The position numbers and the translations under genes were made by a program. Positions 2,638-20,443 of a stretch of 24,000 bases of DNA are shown piece after piece (position 1 is the stretch's first letter; every line of letters starts with the position of its first letter). Source of the DNA: Oscillospiraceae bacterium (GTDB lineage: Bacteria; Bacillota; Clostridia; Oscillospirales; Oscillospiraceae); the NCBI GenBank assembly GCA_015067435.1, contig SVMM01000015.1, positions 2,868-26,867 on the forward strand, in the 5' to 3' direction. The notes beneath the pieces were generated by a model. It did no database searches. It saw only the letters and a list, made by a program, of their open reading frames with translations, and was not told the origin of the DNA.

Positions 2638-3588
2638 ATGGAAAAAGATCGCATCCGCCGCTACGAGCAGGCGGCGGAGCTGCTGCCGCCGCGGCTGCGC
2701 CGGCTGGCGCTGGAGCTGCCGGACGAGCGCAAGGCGCGCGCGGAGGAGCTGCGCCTTCGCGTGCGGCAGCCGCTGACGGTGCTCACGGGGGAGGGCGAGC
2801 TCTCCGTCACGCCGGCGGAGCGCGAGACGCTTGTGACCGGCGACGACATTGAGCGGATGATCGCCGGCGTGACGGAGTATTCGCGCTATGCTTCGCTCGA
2901 AACGATGCGGCAGGGCTATCTGACGGTGCGGGGCGGGTTCCGGCTCGGCGTGTGCGGCACGGCTGTGCTGCGCGACGGCGCCGTGTGCAACCTCAAGGAG
3001 CTCTCCGGCGTGGCACTGCGCATCGTCTGTGAGCGGCCGGGAATCGCCGCCGGCGTGGCGCCGCAGCTGTATGACGACGCGGGACGCCTGCAAAGCACGC
3101 TGATCCTCTCGCCGCCCGGCGGCGGAAAGACGACGCTGCTGCGCGACCTGATCCGCTGCGTCTCGCTGGGCGACGGGGAGCACCGCGCGCTGCGCGTCGC
3201 GGTCGTGGACGAGCGCAGCGAGCTGGCGGCGTCGTATCAGGGCTGCCCGCAGACCGAGCTGGGCAACCACACGGACGTGCTGGACGGCTGCCCCAAGGCG
3301 ATCGGGATCACCATGGTGCTGCGCGCCATGTCGCCGCAGGTGATCGCCGTGGACGAGATCGCGGCGCCGGAGGACGTCGAGGCGGTACGCGCGGCGGCAA
3401 ACTGCGGCGTCGCCCTGCTCGCCACGCTGCACGCCTCCAACGTCGGCGAGCTGCCGCGCAAGGCGCTCTGGCGCGAGCTGCTGCGCGCGGAGGTATTCTC
3501 CCGCGCGGTGGTGATCGAGGGGACAGGAGAGAAGCGCGCCTACCGCGTGGAGACGATCCCATGCTGCGATGGCTCGGCGCTGTCCTGA
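2638..3588 (+). CDS. spoIIIAA: Stage III sporulation protein AA (AAA-type ATPase)
   Basis: 316 aa. Walker A LILSPPGGGKTTLLRDL and Walker-B-like VIAVDEI are present. RBS agggaggg lies at 2623-2630. It is the first gene of an eight-gene spoIIIA-ordered cluster. Confidence 0.9.
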   Translation: MEKDRIRRYEQAAELLPPRLRRLALELPDERKARAEELRLRVRQPLTVLTGEGELSVTPAERETLVTGDDIERMIAGVTEYSRYASLETMRQGYLTVRGGFRLGVCGTAVLRDGAVCNLKELSGVALRIVCERPGIAAGVAPQLYDDAGRLQSTLILSPPGGGKTTLLRDLIRCVSLGDGEHRALRVAVVDERSELAASYQGCPQTELGNHTDVLDGCPKAIGITMVLRAMSPQVIAVDEIAAPEDVEAVRAAANCGVALLATLHASNVGELPRKALWRELLRAEVFSRAVVIEGTGEKRAYRVETIPCCDGSALS

Positions 3589-4049
3589 TCCTCACCGGCG
3601 GACTGCTGGCGCGCCGCACGATGATCGAGGGCGGACGCGCGGCGCAGCGGTGCCGCCGGGAGCTCGCGGCGGCGTTCGAGACCATGGAAGCCGAAGTCCG
3701 GCTGCTGCTGACGCCCATCCCCGCGCTGCTGCGCGGAAGCTACGGTGCGGCGGCGGACGTTTTCTTCGCGCGGGCGGCGGAGGCGGCGTCTGACGGGGCG
3801 GCGCCCGCGGAGGCGTGGCGGAGCGCGGCGGAGGCGCTGCCGCTGCCGGAGGAAGAGCGCGCCGCCCTCGGCGCATGGGGAGGACGGTTCGGCGGAGACG
3901 CCGAGAGCGTGTGCGCCGCGCTCTCGCTCGCGGCGAAGTCGATGCGTTCGCGCTATGATGAAAACGAGGCGCAACGCCCCGGACAGGAACGCCTGACATC
4001 ATCGATCTGCATTTGTATCAGTCTATTTATTTGCGTGCTGATGCTGTAA
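3561..4049 (+). CDS. spoIIIAB: Stage III sporulation protein AB
   Basis: 162 aa. It has an N-terminal TM segment (LGAVLILTGGLLA), a soluble helical middle and a hydrophobic C-terminal tail. A ggaga RBS precedes the ATG. It overlaps spoIIIAA by 28 nt and sits second in the cluster. Confidence 0.8.
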   Translation: MLRWLGAVLILTGGLLARRTMIEGGRAAQRCRRELAAAFETMEAEVRLLLTPIPALLRGSYGAAADVFFARAAEAASDGAAPAEAWRSAAEALPLPEEERAALGAWGGRFGGDAESVCAALSLAAKSMRSRYDENEAQRPGQERLTSSICICISLFICVLML

Positions 4050-4102
4050 CGTGTATCGGAATAACCTGTAAGTGATAATACTTTACATAGGTGATAAAAC
4101 CG

Positions 4103-4300
4103 ATGAATATTGATCTGGTTTTTAAGATTGCAGCGGTGGGGATCGTGGTTGCGGTGCTCAATCAGCTGCTGGTTCGCTCCGACCGTCCGGATCAGGCGAT
4201 GCTGGTGAGTCTGGCGGGGCTGGTGACGACGATGATGCTGCTCGTGCGGGAGATCAGCTCCCTGTTCGACCTCATCAAGTCGCTGTTCGGGTTCTCGTGA
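4103..4300 (+). CDS. spoIIIAC: Stage III sporulation protein AC
   Basis: A 65-aa two-TM protein. IAAVGIVVAVLNQLL resembles B. subtilis SpoIIIAC as I recall it. The RBS aggtga at 4089-4094 favours ATG 4103 over the GTG 4091 given in the ORF track. Confidence 0.85.
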   Translation: MNIDLVFKIAAVGIVVAVLNQLLVRSDRPDQAMLVSLAGLVTTMMLLVREISSLFDLIKSLFGFS

Positions 4301-4686
4301 TGGAGACGGTCGCGAGGGTCGCGGGGCTGTGCCTGACGGCTGCCGCCGCCGCGTCTCTGCTGCGGCGCGAGACGCCGGAGCTGTCCCTGCTGCTCGCCGC
4401 GGCGGCGGCGATCGTTGGCGGCGCGCTGCTGTTCGGCGCGGCGGCGGACGTCGCGGCGCTCGGCGGGGAGCTGATGGAGCTGACGGGGCTCTCCCCGGAG
4501 CTGTTCCGCCCGCTGTGGAAGGCGGCCGCCGTCGCATGGATCGCGCGGATCGGCTCCGCGCTGTGCGCCGATGCGGGGCAGGGCGCGCTGGCGCGGATCA
4601 TGGACGCGGCGGGCGCGCTGTGCGCGCTCTGCTGCGCCGTGCCGCTGCTCCGCGCGCTGCTGGAGCTGCTGAAAGGTTGGATCTGA
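4300..4686 (+). CDS. spoIIIAD: Stage III sporulation protein AD
   Basis: About 128 aa and multi-TM. It has a conserved DAGQGALA motif, as in SpoIIIAD. ATG 4300 shares one nucleotide with the spoIIIAC stop (TGATG). GTG 4297 is an alternative start. Confidence 0.85.
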   Translation: METVARVAGLCLTAAAAASLLRRETPELSLLLAAAAAIVGGALLFGAAADVAALGGELMELTGLSPELFRPLWKAAAVAWIARIGSALCADAGQGALARIMDAAGALCALCCAVPLLRALLELLKGWI

Positions 4687-4690
4687 ACGG

Positions 4691-5773
4691 ATGACGAGGG
4701 CATACGCTTCGCTTTTGCGGTTTGCCGCGCTGCTGGCGCTTTTGACGGCGCTTTCGGTTCCGGTTCACGCCGCACAGCTGCCCGAAACGCTGCGCGCTCT
4801 GCTGCCGGAGGAGATAGCCGCGTCGGAGGAGCTGGGCGGCGTGCTCGCCGCGGGGACGGCATGGCTGCGGGACACGGTGACGTCGTCGCTGGGAGCCTTT
4901 GTGCGCGGCGGCGTGCGCAACGCGGCGCTGCTGACGCTTACGGCAATGATCTGCGGTGCGGCGGAGGGGCTGTGCGCTCCCGCCGGGGAGGACGCTGCGC
5001 GCTATGTGCCCTACTGCGGCGTGCTGACGGCGGCGGCGCTCGCCGCGGGCGACCTGCGCGCACTCATCGGACTCGGCGCGCAGACGGTGGAGGAGCTTGC
5101 GACGCTGGGGCGGCTGCTGCTGCCGACGCTTGCCGCCGCGATGGCGGCGGGGGGCTACGTCTCGACCGCGGGCGTCTGGCAGGTGACGACGCTGATGGTC
5201 TGCGGGCTTTTGAACAACGCCGTGTCGTGCCTGCTGCTGCCGCTGGTCTACTGTCACATCGCCGCGTCCGCGGCGGGCGCGGTGCTGGACGGAAGCCGTC
5301 TGGAGCAGCTCGCGGACGGGATCAGGAAGCTCTCGTCCGGCGTGCTGATTGCCTTTACCGCCGCCTTCACCGCGTATCTGTCGATGGCGGGGGTGCTGAC
5401 CGGCTCCGCGGACCGCGCGGCGGTCAAGGCGGCGAAGCTGGCGGTGTCCGGCGCGATCCCGGTGGTGGGCGGCGTGCTCTCCGACGCGGCGGAGGGCGTG
5501 CTCGCGTCCGCCGGCGCGCTGCGCGGCAGCGTCGGCACGCTGAGCGTGTTCGTCCTGCTCGCGGTGTGTCTGACACCGCTGCTGCGCCTCGGCGTGCAGT
5601 TTTTGCTGTATAAGGCGGCGGCGTTCGCGTCCGGGCTGTTCGGACCGAAGCAGCTCACGGGCTTTCTCGACCGTCTGGGCGACGCGTTCGCGCTGGTGTT
5701 CGCCATGACGGCGGCGAGCGCGACGATCCTGCTTGCGGCGCTGCTGACCGCTATGACGGTCGCGGCGGGATAG
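4691..5773 (+). CDS. spoIIIAE: Stage III sporulation protein AE
   Basis: 360 aa. It has a signal-peptide-like N-terminus (LLALLTALSVPVHA) followed by multiple TM helices. The AIPVVGGVLSDAAEGVL region is typical of SpoIIIAE. It sits fifth in the cluster. Confidence 0.85.
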   Translation: MTRAYASLLRFAALLALLTALSVPVHAAQLPETLRALLPEEIAASEELGGVLAAGTAWLRDTVTSSLGAFVRGGVRNAALLTLTAMICGAAEGLCAPAGEDAARYVPYCGVLTAAALAAGDLRALIGLGAQTVEELATLGRLLLPTLAAAMAAGGYVSTAGVWQVTTLMVCGLLNNAVSCLLLPLVYCHIAASAAGAVLDGSRLEQLADGIRKLSSGVLIAFTAAFTAYLSMAGVLTGSADRAAVKAAKLAVSGAIPVVGGVLSDAAEGVLASAGALRGSVGTLSVFVLLAVCLTPLLRLGVQFLLYKAAAFASGLFGPKQLTGFLDRLGDAFALVFAMTAASATILLAALLTAMTVAAG

Positions 5774-5784
5774 GAGGGGATGAA

Positions 5785-6249
5785 ATGGCGGCTTTGCGGC
5801 AATGGCTGCTGGGCGTGATCGCCTGCGCGATGCTGGTGAGCCTTGCGGACCAGCTCTGTCCGAAGGGCACGGCACGCCTGCCGGTGCGCTTTGCGGGCGG
5901 GCTGCTGCTCCTGCTGGCCATGCTGCGCCCGGTCGGACTTGCGGAGGCGGCGGACGGCGCGTGGGCGGACGGCTACCGCGAGGCGGTGTCGCAGCTGGAG
6001 ATCGAGCTGGGCGGCGCGTGGGAGTCGTCCTTTTCCGACGGCATAGCGGAGAGACTGGCGGCATATATTGAGGACAAAGCGGAGGGCATGGGCGCTCCGG
6101 TGCGCGCGGAGGTAACGATGGAGACACGCGGCGGCACGCCCGTGCCGGAGCGCGTGACGCTGTACGGAGCGTACGACGGCGCGCTGTCCGCGTGGATCGC
6201 CGGAGAGCTCGGCGTTGCGAAGGAGAGGCAGCAATGGATCGACGGATGA
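5785..6249 (+). CDS. spoIIIAF: Stage III sporulation protein AF
   Basis: 154 aa. It has two N-terminal TM segments and then a soluble domain. The RBS aggagggg lies at 5773-5779. The call rests mainly on position and architecture. Confidence 0.7.
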   Translation: MAALRQWLLGVIACAMLVSLADQLCPKGTARLPVRFAGGLLLLLAMLRPVGLAEAADGAWADGYREAVSQLEIELGGAWESSFSDGIAERLAAYIEDKAEGMGAPVRAEVTMETRGGTPVPERVTLYGAYDGALSAWIAGELGVAKERQQWIDG

Positions 6250-6623
6250 ACGGCGGCAGGCTCGAACGGCTGCGCGCCGCCGCGGGGAAGTACAAGTACG
6301 CTCTGGCGGTCGTGCTGCTCGGCGCGGCGCTGATGCTGCTGCCCGCCGGGAGCCGGGAACCGCCGCGCGCGGCGGACGCGGACGCCGCCGACAGCCGGAC
6401 GGCGGCGCAGTCGGAGATGGAGGCGGCGCTCTCCGCCTTCGACGGCGTCGGACGGCTGCGGCTGCTGCTCAGCGTCGATCCCGCGACGCAGCGCTGCTCC
6501 GGTGCGCTGGTCGTGTGCGAGGGGGCGGGCAGCGCGGCGGTGCGCTTGCAGCTGACGCAGGCGGTGTCCGCGCTGACGGGACTGTCGTCCGACAAGATTG
6601 CGATTGTGAAAGGAAAGCCGTGA
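6234..6623 (+). CDS. spoIIIAG: Stage III sporulation protein AG (short form)
   Basis: The RBS aggagagg at 6221-6228 favours ATG 6234 (129 aa) over GTG 6192. It has one TM segment (YALAVVLLGAALMLL). Its C-terminal GALVVCEGAGSAAVRLQLTQAVSALTGLSSDKIAIV matches the remembered SpoIIIAG C-terminus (GVLVVAQGV....IIEAVTRVLDVPSHRVAV). Confidence 0.75.
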   Translation: MDRRMNGGRLERLRAAAGKYKYALAVVLLGAALMLLPAGSREPPRAADADAADSRTAAQSEMEAALSAFDGVGRLRLLLSVDPATQRCSGALVVCEGAGSAAVRLQLTQAVSALTGLSSDKIAIVKGKP

Positions 6624-6684
6624 CATGAAGAAGATTCGCGTGAGGATGCCCAAAATTTTCGGATTTTTCAGGAGGGACGATACC

Positions 6685-7269
6685 ATGAAGAAGCTGTGGA
6701 AACGCAATGCCGTCGTCGGCGCGATGCTGGTGCTGGTGATCGCCGCCATCGTGCTCAACGGGCGCTACGCCGAGACGGTGGAGCAGGCGGCGCAGCCGCC
6801 GGAGGGCAAGGTGCTCGGCCAGGCGGCGGAGGTGGTCGCCGGAACGGAGGACGCCGCGGAGGTCGCGGCGGAGGAGCCGGAGGCGGCGCAGGAAACCGCC
6901 GCGGCGCAGGAGCCGTCGGACTACTTCGCCACCGCCCGCCTTTCGCGCCAGCAGGCGCGCGACAGCGCGCTGTCATTGTTGCAGCAGGCGGGGGAGAGCG
7001 AGGAGATGGACGAGAACGTCGCCGATGAGGTCGCGCAGGGCATCGAGGCGCTCGCGGGCTACACGATGACGGAGGCGCAGATCGAGAACATGGTCATGGC
7101 AAAGGGCTACGACGACTGCGTGGTCTTCCTCTCGTCGGACAGCGTCAGCGTTGTCGTCTCGTCGCAGACCGACGGGCTCCAGACCGAGGACATCGCCCGC
7201 ATCACCGACATTGTCAAGCAGGAGACGGGGCTTCCCGCCAGCGCGATCAAGATTTTGGAGGTCAACTGA
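6685..7269 (+). CDS. spoIIIAH: Stage III sporulation protein AH
   Basis: The RBS aggaggg at 6670-6676 sits 8 nt before ATG 6685, giving 194 aa. ATG 6625 is an alternative start. The protein has an N-terminal TM, an acidic Ala/Glu-rich linker, then DYFATARLSRQQARDS and a C-terminal domain typical of SpoIIIAH. Confidence 0.75.
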   Translation: MKKLWKRNAVVGAMLVLVIAAIVLNGRYAETVEQAAQPPEGKVLGQAAEVVAGTEDAAEVAAEEPEAAQETAAAQEPSDYFATARLSRQQARDSALSLLQQAGESEEMDENVADEVAQGIEALAGYTMTEAQIENMVMAKGYDDCVVFLSSDSVSVVVSSQTDGLQTEDIARITDIVKQETGLPASAIKILEVN

Positions 7270-7329: not shown

Positions 7330-7373
7330 ACCATAGCTAAAGCGAATGTATCCCAATGCAAGGAGTGATTCCC

Positions 7374-7721
7374 ATGGCTGAGTATTTGACCCGGTTCGAG
7401 GACAACGGGACCATCAATATCGCGGAGGACGTCGTCGCCGCCATCGTCGCGGACGCGGTGAAGCAGGTGGAGGGCGTCGGCGCGATGAGCCAGAACGTCA
7501 CCGAGCAGCTTTCGGGCAAGAAGGCTGTGCGCGGCGTGCGCGTGGAGAAGGTGGAGGACGCCATCGTCATCGACCTCTATCTGATGGCGCGCTACGGCTT
7601 CGCGATCCCGGAGGTCGCGCAGCAGGTGCAGGAGAGCGTGTCGAACGCCGTGGGCGGTATGACCGGCTTCCCCGTGAAGGAAGTCAACGTCCATGTCGGC
7701 GGCATCAGCTTCAACGAATGA
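7374..7721 (+). CDS. Asp23/Gls24-family envelope stress (alkaline shock) protein
   Basis: An aggag RBS lies 8 nt before ATG 7374, giving 115 aa. The IAEDVVAAIVADAVKQVEGV and VNVHVGGISF motifs are typical of Asp23/DUF322. Confidence 0.85.
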   Translation: MAEYLTRFEDNGTINIAEDVVAAIVADAVKQVEGVGAMSQNVTEQLSGKKAVRGVRVEKVEDAIVIDLYLMARYGFAIPEVAQQVQESVSNAVGGMTGFPVKEVNVHVGGISFNE

Positions 7722-10616: not shown

Positions 10617-10620
10617 GACA

Positions 10621-10648
10621 AAACGGAGGCTGCCGGCCTCCGTTTTTT
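10621..10648 (+). terminator. Intrinsic terminator after ispA
   Basis: A 9-bp stem aacggaggc (10621-10629) / gcctccgtt (10635-10643) runs directly into TTTTTT. Confidence 0.75.
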
Positions 10649-10682
10649 GTTTGAAATTTTCGTGAATATTCGGATGAATATC

Positions 10683-10711
10683 TTGTATATTTGCAAAAAA
10701 ACATGTATAAT
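10683..10711 (+). promoter_or_regulatory. Sigma-A-type promoter driving the large ncRNA (and probably oapA-dxs)
   Basis: TTGTAT (10683-10688), a 17-nt spacer, then TATAAT (10706-10711) with TG immediately upstream. It sits in an AT-rich island in an otherwise GC-rich sequence. Confidence 0.6.
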
Positions 10712-10717
10712 ACCATA

Positions 10718-11385
10718 CTGCTGAACAGCGGCGCAGTATCCTAGTCAGATCTGCCGTCTCCTAAGAAGGGCCTAAAAATCCTTTAAAGGGCACAACTGTG
10801 AAACCTTTGGTGCCTGCTTCTTACGCCCAGTTTGGGGTGGGTGCTGAAGGGAGGCTATGCCTTTCGTCGTTTCGGAAGCGGAGCCTGCGGATCCCGGGCG
10901 TCCCCTAATGGCATGGGGGATACGACCCTGTTTCCGTGGAGACCCGCCCTCGTGCCGGGCGTAATCCCGCAAGGGTAAAGCGACCCTGGTACGGAGCGGG
11001 CTATGAACCCGTGTTGCGGTGCTAAGCGGCATAAGTGCCGTGAACGCTGTGCGCGGAGTAGCCTGCCTTGCGTGGCGCCGGCGAATCGGAGAATACAACC
11101 AAATCCCCCGGCCAGGGGAGAGGGCGATCGCTCCGTGAAACCGTCGCTGCAAAAGAGGCTAAGAGACGGTTCGACTGCGGCGGAAATCGCCTAGGCTGTC
11201 CTTTGGGGCAGGGCGGGGATTACAGTGCGGACTAAGTGGCAATCGGGTACCGCGCGTCGGCGACGGCGCGGCACGCCCCTCAAAGGGGAACCACCTGACC
11301 GGCAACGGGAGGCGGGGCGTGGGGAAAGCCAACCCGACCAAAGCCGTAGGATTACCTCGCTCTGCTGCCGCTTTTCAGCTCCAAT
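10718..11385 (+). ncRNA. ole: Large structured non-coding RNA, assigned as OLE (ornate, large, extremophilic) RNA. Boundaries are approximate.
   Basis: An 817-nt gap without a credible ORF sits in a tightly packed operon. Nested long-range complementarity is visible: 10753-10760 with 11163-11170; 10743-10746 with 11173-11176; 10762-10768 with 10817-10823; and 10727-10736 with 11362-11372. There are many local GC hairpins. The flanking order ispA | RNA | small 4-TM protein | dxs-tlyA-nadK-argR-recN matches the published OLE/oapA context. The ~650 nt length fits OLE (~610 nt). Confidence 0.75.
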
Positions 11386-11432
11386 TATCAGATTCATTTC
11401 ACGCCTGCGGGTGCGAAATCAAGGAGAGACCC

Positions 11433-11993
11433 ATGAAAAAGGAAGAGGCAAAACCGCGAAGTTATTCCCGCTGGGTGATCCGGATCTTTCTGATGTCCGT
11501 GGCGCTCTCGGCGGTGCTGAGCACCGCGTCGGGCATTGCGCTGGAGGACGCGGGCTATCCGCTGGCGGTGCTGGTGCTGGTTTTGTTCGTGCTGCTCGGC
11601 ATCGTGTTCGACGTGGTCGGCGTCGCGGTGACGGCGGCGGACGCGAAGCCGTTCCACTCCATGGCGGCACACCGGGAAAGGGGCGCGAAGGAAGCGCTTT
11701 TTTTGCTGCGAAACGCCGAGAAGGCGTCCAGCTTCTGCAACGATGTCGTGGGCGACATCTGCGGCATCGTCAGCGGCTCCACCGCGGCGGTGATCGTGCT
11801 GCGCCTGCAAAGCACGTTCGACACGCAGAGCATTTTTATCTCCATCGCCGTCACCGCGCTGATCTCCGGCCTGACCATCGGCGGCAAGGCGATCGGCAAA
11901 AAGCTGGCGCTGGACAGGAGCACGCAGGTGGTATTCACCACGGCGAAGCTGCTGCATTTCCTCCACATCGGCAATCAGGACAACAAGAGGTAG
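11433..11993 (+). CDS. oapA: OLE-associated protein A-like small integral membrane protein
   Basis: The RBS aaggagag at 11421-11428 precedes ATG 11433, giving 186 aa. There are four hydrophobic helices (WVIRIFLMSVALSAVL, LAVLVLVLFVLLGIVFDVVGV, VVGDICGIVSGSTAAVIVL, IFISIAVTALISGLTIGG). It lies immediately between the large ncRNA and dxs, as oapA does. Confidence 0.75.
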   Translation: MKKEEAKPRSYSRWVIRIFLMSVALSAVLSTASGIALEDAGYPLAVLVLVLFVLLGIVFDVVGVAVTAADAKPFHSMAAHRERGAKEALFLLRNAEKASSFCNDVVGDICGIVSGSTAAVIVLRLQSTFDTQSIFISIAVTALISGLTIGGKAIGKKLALDRSTQVVFTTAKLLHFLHIGNQDNKR

Positions 11994-11997
11994 AACA

Positions 11998-13845
11998 TTG
12001 ATTTTGGAGCATATTCAAACCCCGTCGGACGTCAAGGCGCTCAATCGGCAGCAGACGGAGCTTCTGTGCCGGGAGCTTCACACGTTCCTGCTGGAGAGCA
12101 TCGCGGAGACGGGCGGACATCTCGCCTCGAACCTCGGCGCGGTCGAGCTGACGGTCGCGATCCACCGCGTGTTCGACACCGCGCGCGACCGTCTGGTGTT
12201 CGACGTGGGGCACCAGTGCTACGCCCACAAGGCGCTGACCGGGCGCATGGCGCAGTTTCCGACGCTGCGGCAGTACGGCGGGCTTTCGGGCTTCCCGAAG
12301 CCGAACGAGAGCGTGCACGACGCGTTCGTCGCGGGGCACGCGTCCAACTCGGTGTCCGTCGCGCTCGGTATGGCGCGCGCGCGCACGCTGCTGGGCGAGG
12401 ACTATTCCGTGCTGGCGCTCATCGGGGACGGCGCGCTCTCGGGCGGGCTTGCCTACGAGGGGCTGAACAACGCCGGCGCGTCGGGCGAGCCGCTGATCGT
12501 CATTCTCAATGACAACGGGATGTCGATCTCCCGCAACGTCGGCGCGATGAGCGCGCATCTCTCGCGCCTGCGGAGCAAGCCGGCGTACTACGAGTTTAAA
12601 AAGAACTATCGCCGCGTCCTGCTCGGCAGCAAGCCGGGCAAGACGCTCTATGCCTTTAACCACCGGGTCAAGAACACCGTCAAGAACGCGCTGCTGCCCA
12701 ACGCCACCATGTTTGAGGACATGGGCTTCACCTACCTCGGCCCCGTGGACGGTCACGACGAGGAGCAGGTGGAGCATGTGCTGGAATGGGCGAAGGAGCT
12801 CCGCCGCCCCGTGCTCGTGCACGTGCGCACGGTCAAGGGCAAGGGCTATGGGCCCGCGGAGCGCGAACCGGGACGCTGGCACGGCGTGGGACCCTTCGAC
12901 GTCGCGACCGGAGAGATCCGGGAGGGCGGGACGTCGTTCTCGTCCGTGTTCGGCGAGGAGATGTGCGCGCTTGCCGCGGAGGAGCCGCGCCTTTGCGCCA
13001 TCACCGCGGCGATGGCGGACGGAACGGGCCTCACGGAGTTCGCCGAACGCTATCCCAGGCGCTTTTTCGACGTCGGCATCGCGGAGGCTCAGGCCGCGGC
13101 GATGGCGGCGGGCATGGCGAAGCAGGGATTGATCCCCGTGTTCGCCGTGTACTCCACATTTTTGCAGCGCGCCTACGACCAGCTGATCCACGATACGGCG
13201 CTCAGCGGCCTGCACGTCGTGTTCGCCGTGGACCGCTCCGGCTTCGTCGGCGCGGACGGGGAGACGCACCACGGCATCTTCGACGCGACGTTTCTCTCCG
13301 ATATCCCGAACATGACCGTGCTGTGTCCGGCGAGCTTTGCCGAGCTGCGCGCCATGCTGCGCCGCGCCGTGCTTGAGATCGACGGCCCCGTTGCCATCCG
13401 CTACCCGCGCGGCGGGGAGGAGGGCTATACCGACGACCGCAGCGAGGGCGCGTTCGCAACGCTTCGCGAGGGCGCGGACGTCACGCTCTGCGCCTACGGC
13501 ACGATGGTGAACAGCGTGCTCGGCGCGGCGGAGCTGCTGGAAAAGCAGGGCATTTCGGCGAGCGTCGTCAAGGTGAACCGCATCTCGCCGTTTATCGACG
13601 CGGACGTGCGCAAGACCTTCGCGGGGACGAAAAAGCTGATCGTCGCCGAGGAGTGCGCCAGCGTCGGCTGCGTCGGACAGAGACTTGCGGCAATATTGAC
13701 TGAGGAAGGAACACCGCTCGAAAAACTATATTTGTGCAATCTCGGCAAGCGTTTTCCGCCCCACGGCGGCGCGGAACAACTGCGTAAGGCTTTCCAATTG
13801 GACGCTGAGTCTATTGCCAAGCGCACGATCGAGGTGATCCGATGA
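11998..13845 (+). CDS. dxs: 1-deoxy-D-xylulose-5-phosphate synthase
   Basis: 615 aa. The TTG start is preceded by an aagagg RBS. Hallmark motifs are GGHLASNLGAVELTVAIH, DVGHQCYAHKALTGR and the TPP-binging GDGALSGG...NDN. Confidence 0.95.
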   Translation: MILEHIQTPSDVKALNRQQTELLCRELHTFLLESIAETGGHLASNLGAVELTVAIHRVFDTARDRLVFDVGHQCYAHKALTGRMAQFPTLRQYGGLSGFPKPNESVHDAFVAGHASNSVSVALGMARARTLLGEDYSVLALIGDGALSGGLAYEGLNNAGASGEPLIVILNDNGMSISRNVGAMSAHLSRLRSKPAYYEFKKNYRRVLLGSKPGKTLYAFNHRVKNTVKNALLPNATMFEDMGFTYLGPVDGHDEEQVEHVLEWAKELRRPVLVHVRTVKGKGYGPAEREPGRWHGVGPFDVATGEIREGGTSFSSVFGEEMCALAAEEPRLCAITAAMADGTGLTEFAERYPRRFFDVGIAEAQAAAMAAGMAKQGLIPVFAVYSTFLQRAYDQLIHDTALSGLHVVFAVDRSGFVGADGETHHGIFDATFLSDIPNMTVLCPASFAELRAMLRRAVLEIDGPVAIRYPRGGEEGYTDDRSEGAFATLREGADVTLCAYGTMVNSVLGAAELLEKQGISASVVKVNRISPFIDADVRKTFAGTKKLIVAEECASVGCVGQRLAAILTEEGTPLEKLYLCNLGKRFPPHGGAEQLRKAFQLDAESIAKRTIEVIR

Positions 13846-18742: not shown

Positions 18743-18871
18743 ACGCCATACCGACAGCGATGAAGCGGAGAAGTAAGCGGAAGCGCCCTGCCAAGAGAGA
18801 CCCGGTGCGGTGGAACGGGGAGAGGGCGGCCGTTGAAATACACCGCGGAGCTGATACCCGAACGGCGAATG

Positions 18872-18910
18872 CAGCCATGTTTTGCGGTTGCCCCGCAGGG
18901 GCGAGCGAAA
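18872..18910. repeat. Left arm of a 39-bp inverted repeat inside the T-box leader (Stem II region)
   Basis: cagccatgttttgcggttgccccgcaggggcgagcgaaa is complementary to 19107-19145. I counted 35 Watson-Crick pairs, 3 G-U pairs and 1 mismatch by hand. The arm is itself a quasi-palindrome. Confidence 0.8.
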
Positions 18911-19106
18911 CGGCGGTCCAATGGCTGCATCAAACGGCAAAGGAATTGCCGTTTGATGACAAGCCCAGTAGGCGTTATCCGGGTGCGCCCGTTATCGCGC
19001 AGGAGTTTGCAGGAACTCCGTGAGGCCGCCCCCGTGAGGAGGCGGCGAACCAGAGGTGGTACCGCGACATATGCAGTCAGCCACTGGCTGCATATGATGA
19101 TCGTCA

Positions 19107-19145
19107 TTTCGCTTGCCCCTGCGGGGCAACCGCGAAATATGACTG
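19107..19145. repeat. Right arm of the 39-bp inverted repeat, inside the antiterminator apical insertion
   Basis: tttcgcttgcccctgcggggcaaccgcgaaatatgactg is the reverse complement of 18872-18910, apart from one mismatch and three wobble positions. Confidence 0.8.
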
Positions 19146-19151
19146 ATTTCG

Positions 19152-19190
19152 CCCTCTGTCCTACCAAAACGGGGCAGGGGGATTTTCTTT
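19152..19190 (+). terminator. T-box-controlled intrinsic terminator
   Basis: A 10-bp stem ccctctgtcc (19152-19161) / gggcaggggg (19172-19181) is followed by TTTTCTTT (19183-19190). Its 5' strand overlaps the 3' strand of the antiterminator. Confidence 0.7.
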
Positions 19191-19219
19191 GCCCAAGACG
19201 ACAAAAGGAGACGATCAAT

Positions 19220-20443
19220 ATGGGAATCTACGAAGAACTCAAGGCGCGCGGCCTGATCGCACAGGTGACGAACGAGGATGAGATCCGCGAGATGATAAAC
19301 GCCGGCAAGGCGACGTTCTACATCGGCTTCGACTGCACGGCGGACAGCCTGACCGCGGGTCACTTCATGGCGCTGACGCTGATGAAGCGTTTGCAGCAGG
19401 CGGGCAACAAGCCCATCGCGCTCATCGGCGGCGGCACGACGATGATCGGAGACCCGTCGGGCCGCACGGACATGCGCAAGATGCTGACAAAAGAGGACAT
19501 CGAGCACAATGCCGAGTGCTTCAAACGCCAGATGGAGCGCTTCATCGAGTTTGGCCCTGGCAAGGCGATGATGCTTAACAATGCCGAGTGGCTGCTCAGC
19601 CTCAACTATGTCGAGCTGCTGCGCGAGGTCGGCGCGTGCTTCTCGGTGAACAACATGCTGCGCGCCGAGTGCTACAGGCAGCGCATGGAGAAGGGCCTCT
19701 CGTTCCTTGAATTCAACTACATGATCATGCAGTCCTACGACTTCTACTACATGTTCCAGCATTACGGCTGCAACATGCAGTTCGGCGGCGACGACCAGTG
19801 GTCGAACATGCTCGGCGGCACGGAGCTCATCCGCCGCAAGCTCGGCAAGGACGCGCACGCGATGACCATCACGCTGCTCACCGACGCCAACGGCAAGAAG
19901 ATGGGCAAGACCGCGGGCAACGCCGTCTGGCTCGACCCGAACAAGACCAGCCCCTACGACTTTTACCAGTACTGGCGCAACGTCGACGACGCCGACGTGA
20001 TGAAGTGCATCCGGATGCTGACCTTCCTGCCGCTGGAGCAGATCGACGAGATGGACAAGTGGGAGGGCAGCGAGCTCAACCGCGCCAAGGAGGTGCTTGC
20101 CTTCGAGCTCACCAAGCTCGTTCACGGCGAAGAGGAGGCGAACAAGGCGCAGGAGAGCGCCAAGGCGCTTTTCGGCGGCGGCGGCAGCATGGAGAACGTA
20201 CCGGCCACGACGCTCGCCGACGCCGACCTCACCGACGGCAAGATCGACATTTTGAGCCTGCTGGTCAAGACCGGCCTGTGCCCGTCCCGCGGCGAGGCGC
20301 GCCGCCTCGTCCAGCAGGGCGGCGTCACGGTGGACGACCAAAAGGTCGCGTCCATCGACGAGAGCTATGACAAAAATCGTCTCACGGGTGATGGACTTAT
20401 GATTAAGAAAGGCAAGAAAGTCTATCACAAAGTGACGATGTAA
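19220..20443 (+). CDS. tyrS: Tyrosine--tRNA ligase
   Basis: The RBS aaaggag favours ATG 19220 (407 aa). The N-terminus is MGIYEELKARGLIAQVT. It has the class I motifs DCTADSLTAGH and KMGKT (KMSKS-like) and a C-terminal S4 domain (SRGEARRLVQQGGVTVDD). The 129 aa upstream in the ORF track are the T-box leader. Confidence 0.95.
   Translation: MGIYEELKARGLIAQVTNEDEIREMINAGKATFYIGFDCTADSLTAGHFMALTLMKRLQQAGNKPIALIGGGTTMIGDPSGRTDMRKMLTKEDIEHNAECFKRQMERFIEFGPGKAMMLNNAEWLLSLNYVELLREVGACFSVNNMLRAECYRQRMEKGLSFLEFNYMIMQSYDFYYMFQHYGCNMQFGGDDQWSNMLGGTELIRRKLGKDAHAMTITLLTDANGKKMGKTAGNAVWLDPNKTSPYDFYQYWRNVDDADVMKCIRMLTFLPLEQIDEMDKWEGSELNRAKEVLAFELTKLVHGEEEANKAQESAKALFGGGGSMENVPATTLADADLTDGKIDILSLLVKTGLCPSRGEARRLVQQGGVTVDDQKVASIDESYDKNRLTGDGLMIKKGKKVYHKVTM

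Follow-up and report, generated by a model that had tools for sequence, protein, structure and literature searches.

OLE, the ornate large extremophilic RNA, is an already known class of large bacterial noncoding RNA that associates with the membrane (Puerta-Fernandez et al., 2006), curated as a family in Rfam since 2006-2010, endowed with a consensus by Fernando and Breaker (2024), and reported with 2,822 representatives in GTDB Bacillota (PMC11332333). Its architecture and its partners have been published (PMC12265935, PMC11332333, PMC7936274, PMC9723947, PMC12286853). The molecule is organised into domain 1 (helices P3-P9) and domain 2 (P1, P2 and P10-P15), linked by a stalk of approximately 12 bp made of P3 and P3.1, and cryo-EM displays four RNA-RNA dimer contacts, via the A-rich loops of P4, the kissing loops of P5.1 and P6.1 and the palindromic loops of P9 (PMC12265935). 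Proteins accompany the RNA. OapA is marked by four transmembrane helices, by a DxxxD motif and by sequences that form the next-best group of matches to the CNNM model (PMC11332333; PMC12265935); OapB binds P13, which has a GNRA cap and a bulged nucleotide and adjoins P12.2 (PMC7936274); and the site of OapC has been described in two ways, as a kink-turn '1a' which uses the junction J5/6 as one strand and was proposed from OapC binding data (PMC9723947), and as a kink-turn '1b' between J4a/5 and J6/7, seen by cryo-EM (PMC12286853). Both kink-turns are now treated as possible by the Breaker laboratory.

We analysed a window of 24,000 nucleotides, the whole stretch of DNA presented above, which belongs to an uncultured rumen/gut Oscillospiraceae; positions are those of the window, and the RNA, its transcription signals and the downstream gene all lie on the + strand. 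In a region where genes follow one another closely, 817 bases separate the stop of ispA (10616) from the next credible start, an ATG at 11433 preceded by AGGAG (11422-11426). A sequence-only reading of this DNA had delimited both ends of the gap in the same way and had placed in it, at 10718-11385, an OLE RNA or else a new analogue in the place of OLE, proposing a cmsearch run with the Rfam model as a check. That check was passed decisively: when the whole window was scanned with Rfam 15 at gathering thresholds, a single match was returned, to RF01071 (OLE), at 10712-11387 (+), with 390.6 bits (E 1.2e-111) where the gathering score is 50, and spanning model positions 1-616 of 616 without truncation, in agreement with the coordinates first proposed. 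The corresponding gene is thus full length (10712-11387, 676 nt, 61% GC), and we hold, with a probability of about 0.97, that the gap contains the ole gene of this uncultured member of the Oscillospiraceae, specifying an RNA of roughly 650 nt. It is an ordinary member of its family, in a known context.

This context is the one that would be expected for the class. Scanned with Pfam and NCBIfam, the flanking ORFs gave the order yqhY-like asp23, nusB, xseA, xseB, ispA (encoding FPP synthase), ole, oapA, dxs, tlyA, nadK, argR, recN, so that the classic succession from xseA to recN, recognised beforehand by eye, was recovered by domain content; an M28 peptidase gene and tyrS come 3' of recN. The gene of the Asp23 family (7356-7721) is probably yqhY-like, as suggested by its family match together with its adjacency to nusB, and yqhY ranks high among the neighbours of ole (PMC12265935). 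The nusB-xseAB-ispA-ole cluster is preceded by a complete spoIIIAA-AH sporulation operon (2638-7269); an association with ole has been reported in the literature for sporulation proteins as well as for yqhY. At the other end, a T-box-leader-like element (18751-19087, +) precedes tyrS; it matches RF00230 over its full length with 47 bits, below the gathering score of 93 (E 3.9e-9), and the listed tyrS ORF (18833-20443) therefore over-extends 5' into this leader.

The gene immediately downstream of the RNA, a 186-aa ORF (11433-11993) whose AGGAG lies 7 nt upstream of its ATG, has the hallmarks of OapA as far as these can be predicted. Four hydrophobic segments are discerned by the Kyte-Doolittle scale only, at residues about 11-38, 40-72, 104-127 and 129-155. 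The DxxxD motif is present as NDVVGD (residues 103-108, with D104 and D108) within a conserved block SFCNDVVGDI, and is kept in at least 90% of 81 homologues. A match to CNNM (PF01595) was obtained at 25.6 bits (E 1.1e-5), which is below the cut-off of 28.4 and in the score range where OapA proteins are reported to cluster. This weak similarity is what the protein shares with CNNM Mg2+ transporters such as MpfA and CorB, from which it differs by its length of only 186 residues and by having neither CBS nor CorC domains. A search of PDB sequences with this OapA gave no matches even at E 10. Genomes with an OLE RNA are expected to encode OapB (a KOW protein) and OapC (YbxF/L7Ae) as well, usually without MpfA; within the 24-kb window oapB and oapC are absent, and no match to OapB, OapC or MpfA was found among the ORFs examined there.

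The exact OapA sequence was retrieved from 18 metagenome contigs (ENA, JGI, Logan). Its nearest genome representatives are uncultured rumen and gut Oscillospiraceae, with an OapA identity of 76-81%, followed by Oscillibacter, Dysosmobacter, Vescimonas, Papillibacter and others; a literature search for OLE in Oscillospiraceae found nothing. Through OapA we gathered 80 genome loci, in 73 of which nhmmer located an OLE RNA just before oapA, matches cut by the end of a locus being counted. Eight loci (L027, L032, L046, L048, L053, L057, L060 and L070) had no OLE within 2.5 kb upstream of oapA by the same search, L046 displaying only the 3' end of one, at the locus edge approximately 2.4 kb upstream; this suggests that genes were inserted between ole and oapA, or that ole was lost. 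Full-length OLE RNAs directly upstream of oapA came from 68 relatives, and these were aligned with that of the window (69 sequences, 57-90% nucleotide identity). Since the alignment was made with MAFFT, which is not structure-aware, and since the sequences are related by descent, significance is overstated by the shuffle counts given below.

When the Rfam consensus was mapped to the window, 138 of its 155 pairs were canonical, and its 17 helices, 63-100% paired in the 69 sequences, all showed compensatory changes. The Rfam model leaves its first 53 nucleotides and their partners unpaired and so contains neither P1, nor P2, nor P3/P3.1 (helix names were assigned here from published text descriptions). 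It is worth emphasizing that covariation in the relatives supports precisely these three long-range helices. P1 joins both ends of the molecule, pairing 10727-10732 with 11367-11372, after which comes UUUU; its 6 bp are 96.5% paired, with compensatory changes at 5 of 6 pairs, and none of 500 shuffles reached the observed values. P2 unites CCUAG (10740-10744), which includes a palindromic CUAG in the region of the published OapA site (PMC12265935), with CUAGG (11191-11195); it is 100% paired, 2 of its 5 pairs are compensatory, and its pairing was reached in 0/500 shuffles. The 5' strands of P3.1 (10746-48 and 10750-51) and P3 (10753-60) follow at 10746-10760 and pair with 11163-11177, making some 13 bp between domains 1 and 2. 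P3 itself (8 bp, 10753-60/11163-70) was 92.9% paired and compensatory at all eight pairs, again with no shuffle in 500 attaining this, and P3.1 (5 bp, CAG/CUG and UC/GA, 10746-51/11173-77) had a pairing that 0/500 shuffles reached. The 3' strands of P3 (11163-70), P3.1 (11173-77) and P2 (11191-95), extending over 11163-11195, enclose a small P10 hairpin (11180-11190).

These helices allow us to evaluate the pairings that had been proposed from the window alone. The 8-bp helix 10753-60/11163-70 can be equated with P3, and the hairpin 11250-55/11266-71 is supported as the stem of P13. Of the helix said to join the two ends, the outer part (10727-32/11367-72) is P1, and the inner part (10733-36/11362-65) had to be abandoned: it did no better than shuffles and competes with the covarying helix 11207-17/11356-66, which is 96% paired with 9 of 11 pairs compensatory. 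The flank AGUC/GACU (10743-46/11173-76) is a mis-register, no better than shuffles either, and the data favour P2 (10740-44/11191-95) together with P3.1; indeed the U10750-A11174 pair switches to G-C in nine sequences, U10750 becoming G as 11174 goes from A to C, with U10745 remaining unchanged opposite C. A 7-bp helix, 10762-68/10817-23, was paired in 79.5% of cases for a shuffle mean of 79.4%, did not truly covary and overlaps P4 and P5, which do, so that it was rejected. The same fate befell the CCCC/GGGG hairpin 11276-79/11285-88, only 50.7% paired, whose 5' strand belongs to 11272-79/11314-21. All four unsupported pairings correspond to complementarity in the window sequence which, across relatives, is no better than in shuffles and clashes with covarying helices. 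A further candidate, GCA 10790-92 with UGC 10886-88, is without support: neither strand varies, apart from one UAC, in L043, for which no change on the other strand compensates.

The rest of the fold is that of the family. P7 (10943-11000) and P8 (11009-11056) are supported both by the Rfam match and by covariation, and so is the multi-helix 3' domain (11207-11366), which comprises the P12 series (11207-17/11356-66, 11226-30/11344-48 and 11243-48/11332-37), P13 (11250-71), P14 (11272-79/11314-21) and an inner hairpin (11293-11313). Three insertions distinguish the window RNA from the Rfam model, at the tips of P7 and P8 and in the J5/6 linker; most aligned relatives likewise have the longer tips of P7 and P8. 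Individual sequences vary beyond this: in L010 (1723-2364) the P9 segment has about half its normal length (26 against 49 nt), in L068 (1638-2431) the P8 tip attains 72 nt, and P13 is expanded by 73-79 nt in two relatives and truncated to 18-19 nt, without the GNRA OapB site, in four others. The lower part of P6 is poorly paired in the window and in its relatives (22-28% for 10892-93/10931-32). In the window, lower P6 (10892-10895/10929-10932) is mostly mismatched; in H. halodurans this is the region of the described SD/anti-SD mimic for bS21.

The loops reported to make the dimer contacts of the published structure are all present, as CCUAAAAA, ACGCCCAGU, UAAUGGCAUG and CCCGGCCAGG, in P4, P5.1/P6.1 and P9. 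By analogy with that structure, the P4 hairpin (10765-10784), with its conserved A-rich loop CCUAAAAA, would provide one contact; the P5/P5.1 hairpin (10804-10850, loop ACGCCCAGU) and the P6/P6.1 hairpin (10889-10935, loop UAAUGGCAUG) would be kissing-loop partners of each other; and the long P9 arm (11065-11159), with its palindromic GGCC loop, would provide another. P13 carries a GCGA tetraloop (11260-63) and a 2-nt bulge, where H. halodurans and most relatives have a bulge of 1 nt. This latter feature, the remodelled J5/6 and the weak lower P6 might evoke a reduced or decaying OLE, of the kind published as variant 1 or 2, that has lost its partner sites. We consider this very improbable: the RNA, at 676 nt, is not reduced, P13 retains both its GNRA cap and a bulge, and the presence of P7, P8 and a full-length P9 assigns the molecule to the full-length OLE type and not to the reduced variants.

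How the RNA is transcribed bears on a second alternative. The xseA-xseB-ispA unit ends, as had been noticed beforehand, with an intrinsic-terminator-like element (10620-10652), a 12-pair stem (10620-10646) followed by a T-run. Behind it stands a putative sigma-A-type promoter (10683-10711), with a -35 box TTGTAT (10683-88), a 17-nt spacer and a -10 box TATAAT (10706-11). It had been called a good promoter, a judgement that is partly borne out: the -10 box is perfect and the position is conserved in relatives; the -35 box is weak, and because it matches only three of six positions, a promoter scanner made no call. A -10-like hexamer is present in 68 of the 69 aligned sequences and ends 13-15 nt before P1 in 56 of them. 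From this conservation of position we infer a dedicated ole promoter, whose start would fall near 10718. The interval from the OLE RNA to oapA has no detected terminator, which makes read-through likely, and transcription probably continues from ole into oapA-dxs. One could then regard the element as a cis-acting leader, a riboswitch or an attenuator controlling oapA-dxs, rather than as a stable trans-acting RNA, as it directly precedes oapA in the same orientation and probably within a single transcript. Against this stand its size, its approximately 25 helices and its dimer-contact loops, which are not those of a leader, the lack of a match to any cis-regulatory Rfam family, and the behaviour of OLE in H. 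halodurans, where it is an abundant RNA, separate from any mRNA, that works as part of an RNP (PMC12265935, PMC9723947). A leader is accordingly very unlikely, and the reading as an OLE RNA proper is retained.

There is hardly any room for the two remaining alternatives. A protein-coding gap would consist of a 126-aa antisense ORF (10772-11152) or of 5' extensions of the frames 11225-12001 and 11319-12001; these ORFs do exist, many relatives have long antisense stretches free of stops (median 113 aa) and there is a slight excess of substitutions at the third codon position. Yet 88% of indels have lengths that 3 does not divide, homology is split over two or three frames in most relatives, with a single HSP of at least 110 aa in only 11 of 69, and amino-acid identity (35-71%) is below nucleotide identity (57-90%). 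The substitution pattern is that of helix covariation, long open stretches are expected in a GC-rich and helix-rich sequence, and a conserved in-frame ORF under purifying selection was not seen across relatives. As genes, the antisense and 5'-extended ORFs were thus rejected, in keeping with their early dismissal as junk, for they are not conserved as protein. As for a novel large noncoding RNA that would merely occupy the OLE locus, a GC content of 61% and three insertions relative to the Rfam consensus speak in its favour, but the full-length match at 390.6 bits, the presence of all conserved blocks and the continuous connection made by nhmmer from the window RNA to the OLE of Clostridium argentinense and 67 others exclude it.

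We are left with an OLE RNA that has a slightly unusual trait, found in the core of domain 1, at J5/6. Where the Rfam consensus has UUAA, the window displays, at 10851-10888, a lineage-specific extra hairpin, made of GA, a stem-loop (10852-10886) and GC. Among the aligned sequences, 51 of 69 (the window and relatives within L007-L071) have replaced the linker in this way, most often by GA, then a covarying hairpin of 19-39 nt and 6-14 bp, then UGC; the other 18 have no hairpin, with UUAA in 16 and a 2-nt linker in two. These inserts comprise 43 distinct sequences with a median folding z-score of -3.6 relative to shuffles, and the version in the window, of 38 nt, is among the longest. In the text of the OLE papers examined, no mention of this hairpin was found, and we do not claim novelty.

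The location of the hairpin is what gives it significance. J4a/5 (ACUGUGAAA, 10795-10803), where G10800 and A10801 are invariant, would be the bulged strand of the OapC kink-turn, and J6/7 (GUGGAGA, 10936-10942, identical in 59 of 69) would be the non-bulged strand of the kink-turn '1b' seen by cryo-EM. In the sequences bearing the hairpin, the GA of J4a/5 (10800-01) and the GUGGAGA of J6/7 are conserved and the AA of J5/6 is lost, a combination compatible with kink-turn 1b and awkward for 1a. We may then propose, tentatively and at somewhat worse than even odds, that in an Oscillospiraceae sub-lineage which includes the window the UUAA of J5/6 was changed into GA, a covarying hairpin and UGC, adding a sixth arm to the five-way junction of the domain 1 core; this would argue that kink-turn '1a' is dispensable there, or has been remodelled. 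If so, the OLE RNAs with a J5/6 hairpin would constitute a ready-made natural test case for the choice between 1a and 1b. The hairpin is in effect a natural perturbation placed beside the region that binds OapC and bS21, where three mutually exclusive structures are debated, and, as J5/6 differs from the consensus, the protein-induced rearrangements described in H. halodurans may not transfer unchanged to this lineage.

A function for the locus can be sketched by homology, the fold, the dimer, the partners and the stresses being those of Halalkalibacterium halodurans and of two Clostridium species studied by cryo-EM. The RNA would be transcribed from its own putative promoter, after the ispA terminator, and would fold into domain 1 (P3-P9) and domain 2 (P1, P2 and P10-P15), joined by the P3/P3.1 stalk of approximately 13 bp. 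If abundant, as OLE is elsewhere, it would dimerise. The four-helix, CNNM-like OapA would hold it at the membrane by binding palindromic sites near P2 and P4a, and the stalk might possibly cross the membrane. OapB would be recruited at the GNRA loop and bulge of P13, OapC would be recruited at a kink-turn in which J4a/5 takes part, and bS21 might be recruited as well. The resulting particle would then help the cell to withstand stresses, among them cold, exposure to short-chain alcohols, an excess of Mg2+ and growth on poor carbon sources.

The identification itself matters little, as Rfam-based annotation would label the locus and thousands of representatives have been catalogued; one more OLE, of 61% GC and from a clade rich in similar sequences, is a minor addition. 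That a structured RNA of this size could be recognised from raw sequence and gene order, along with helices that span long distances, is of some methodological relevance, and the GC-rich Oscillospiraceae sequences, by offering clean covariation for P1, P2 and P3/P3.1, represent a small comparative gain. The lineage-specific J5/6 hairpin is the only lead presented here that deserves the attention of specialists.

It remains to situate this RNA with respect to what is already described. The k-junction, a three-way junction built on a kink-turn and studied by the Lilley laboratory, comes naturally to mind, since the extra hairpin sits in J5/6, the proposed non-bulged strand of kink-turn '1a', right after the conserved GA. 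The register does not fit, however: two extra A residues separate the G.A-forming positions from P5, and the kink-turn observed by cryo-EM uses J6/7, so that a textbook k-junction was rejected and there is only a resemblance. Compared with the ole cluster of H. halodurans, reported to be expressed as one polycistronic transcript (PMC12265935), the window has a gene with its own putative promoter behind a terminator. Variants 1 (TANB77) and 2 (RF39) belong to the same RNA class and are likewise found in uncultured gut Bacillota, yet in them P7-P9 are shortened or gone, as the OapB site frequently is too (PMC11332333), where the window RNA keeps P7-P9 and a GNRA-capped P13 with a bulge, and gains a hairpin. 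It is to the full-length OLE type that the window RNA is closest: it has the same helices P1-P15, as far as these can be tested, the same conserved loops, the same oapA neighbour and the same surroundings, xseA-xseB-ispA on one side and dxs-tlyA-nadK-argR-recN on the other. It departs from that type by its GC content of 61%, by being approximately 60-70 nt longer than the Rfam model, with longer P7 and P8 tips, by its 34-nt hairpin in place of the UUAA linker of J5/6, and by its host, a rumen or gut anaerobe instead of a classical extremophile.
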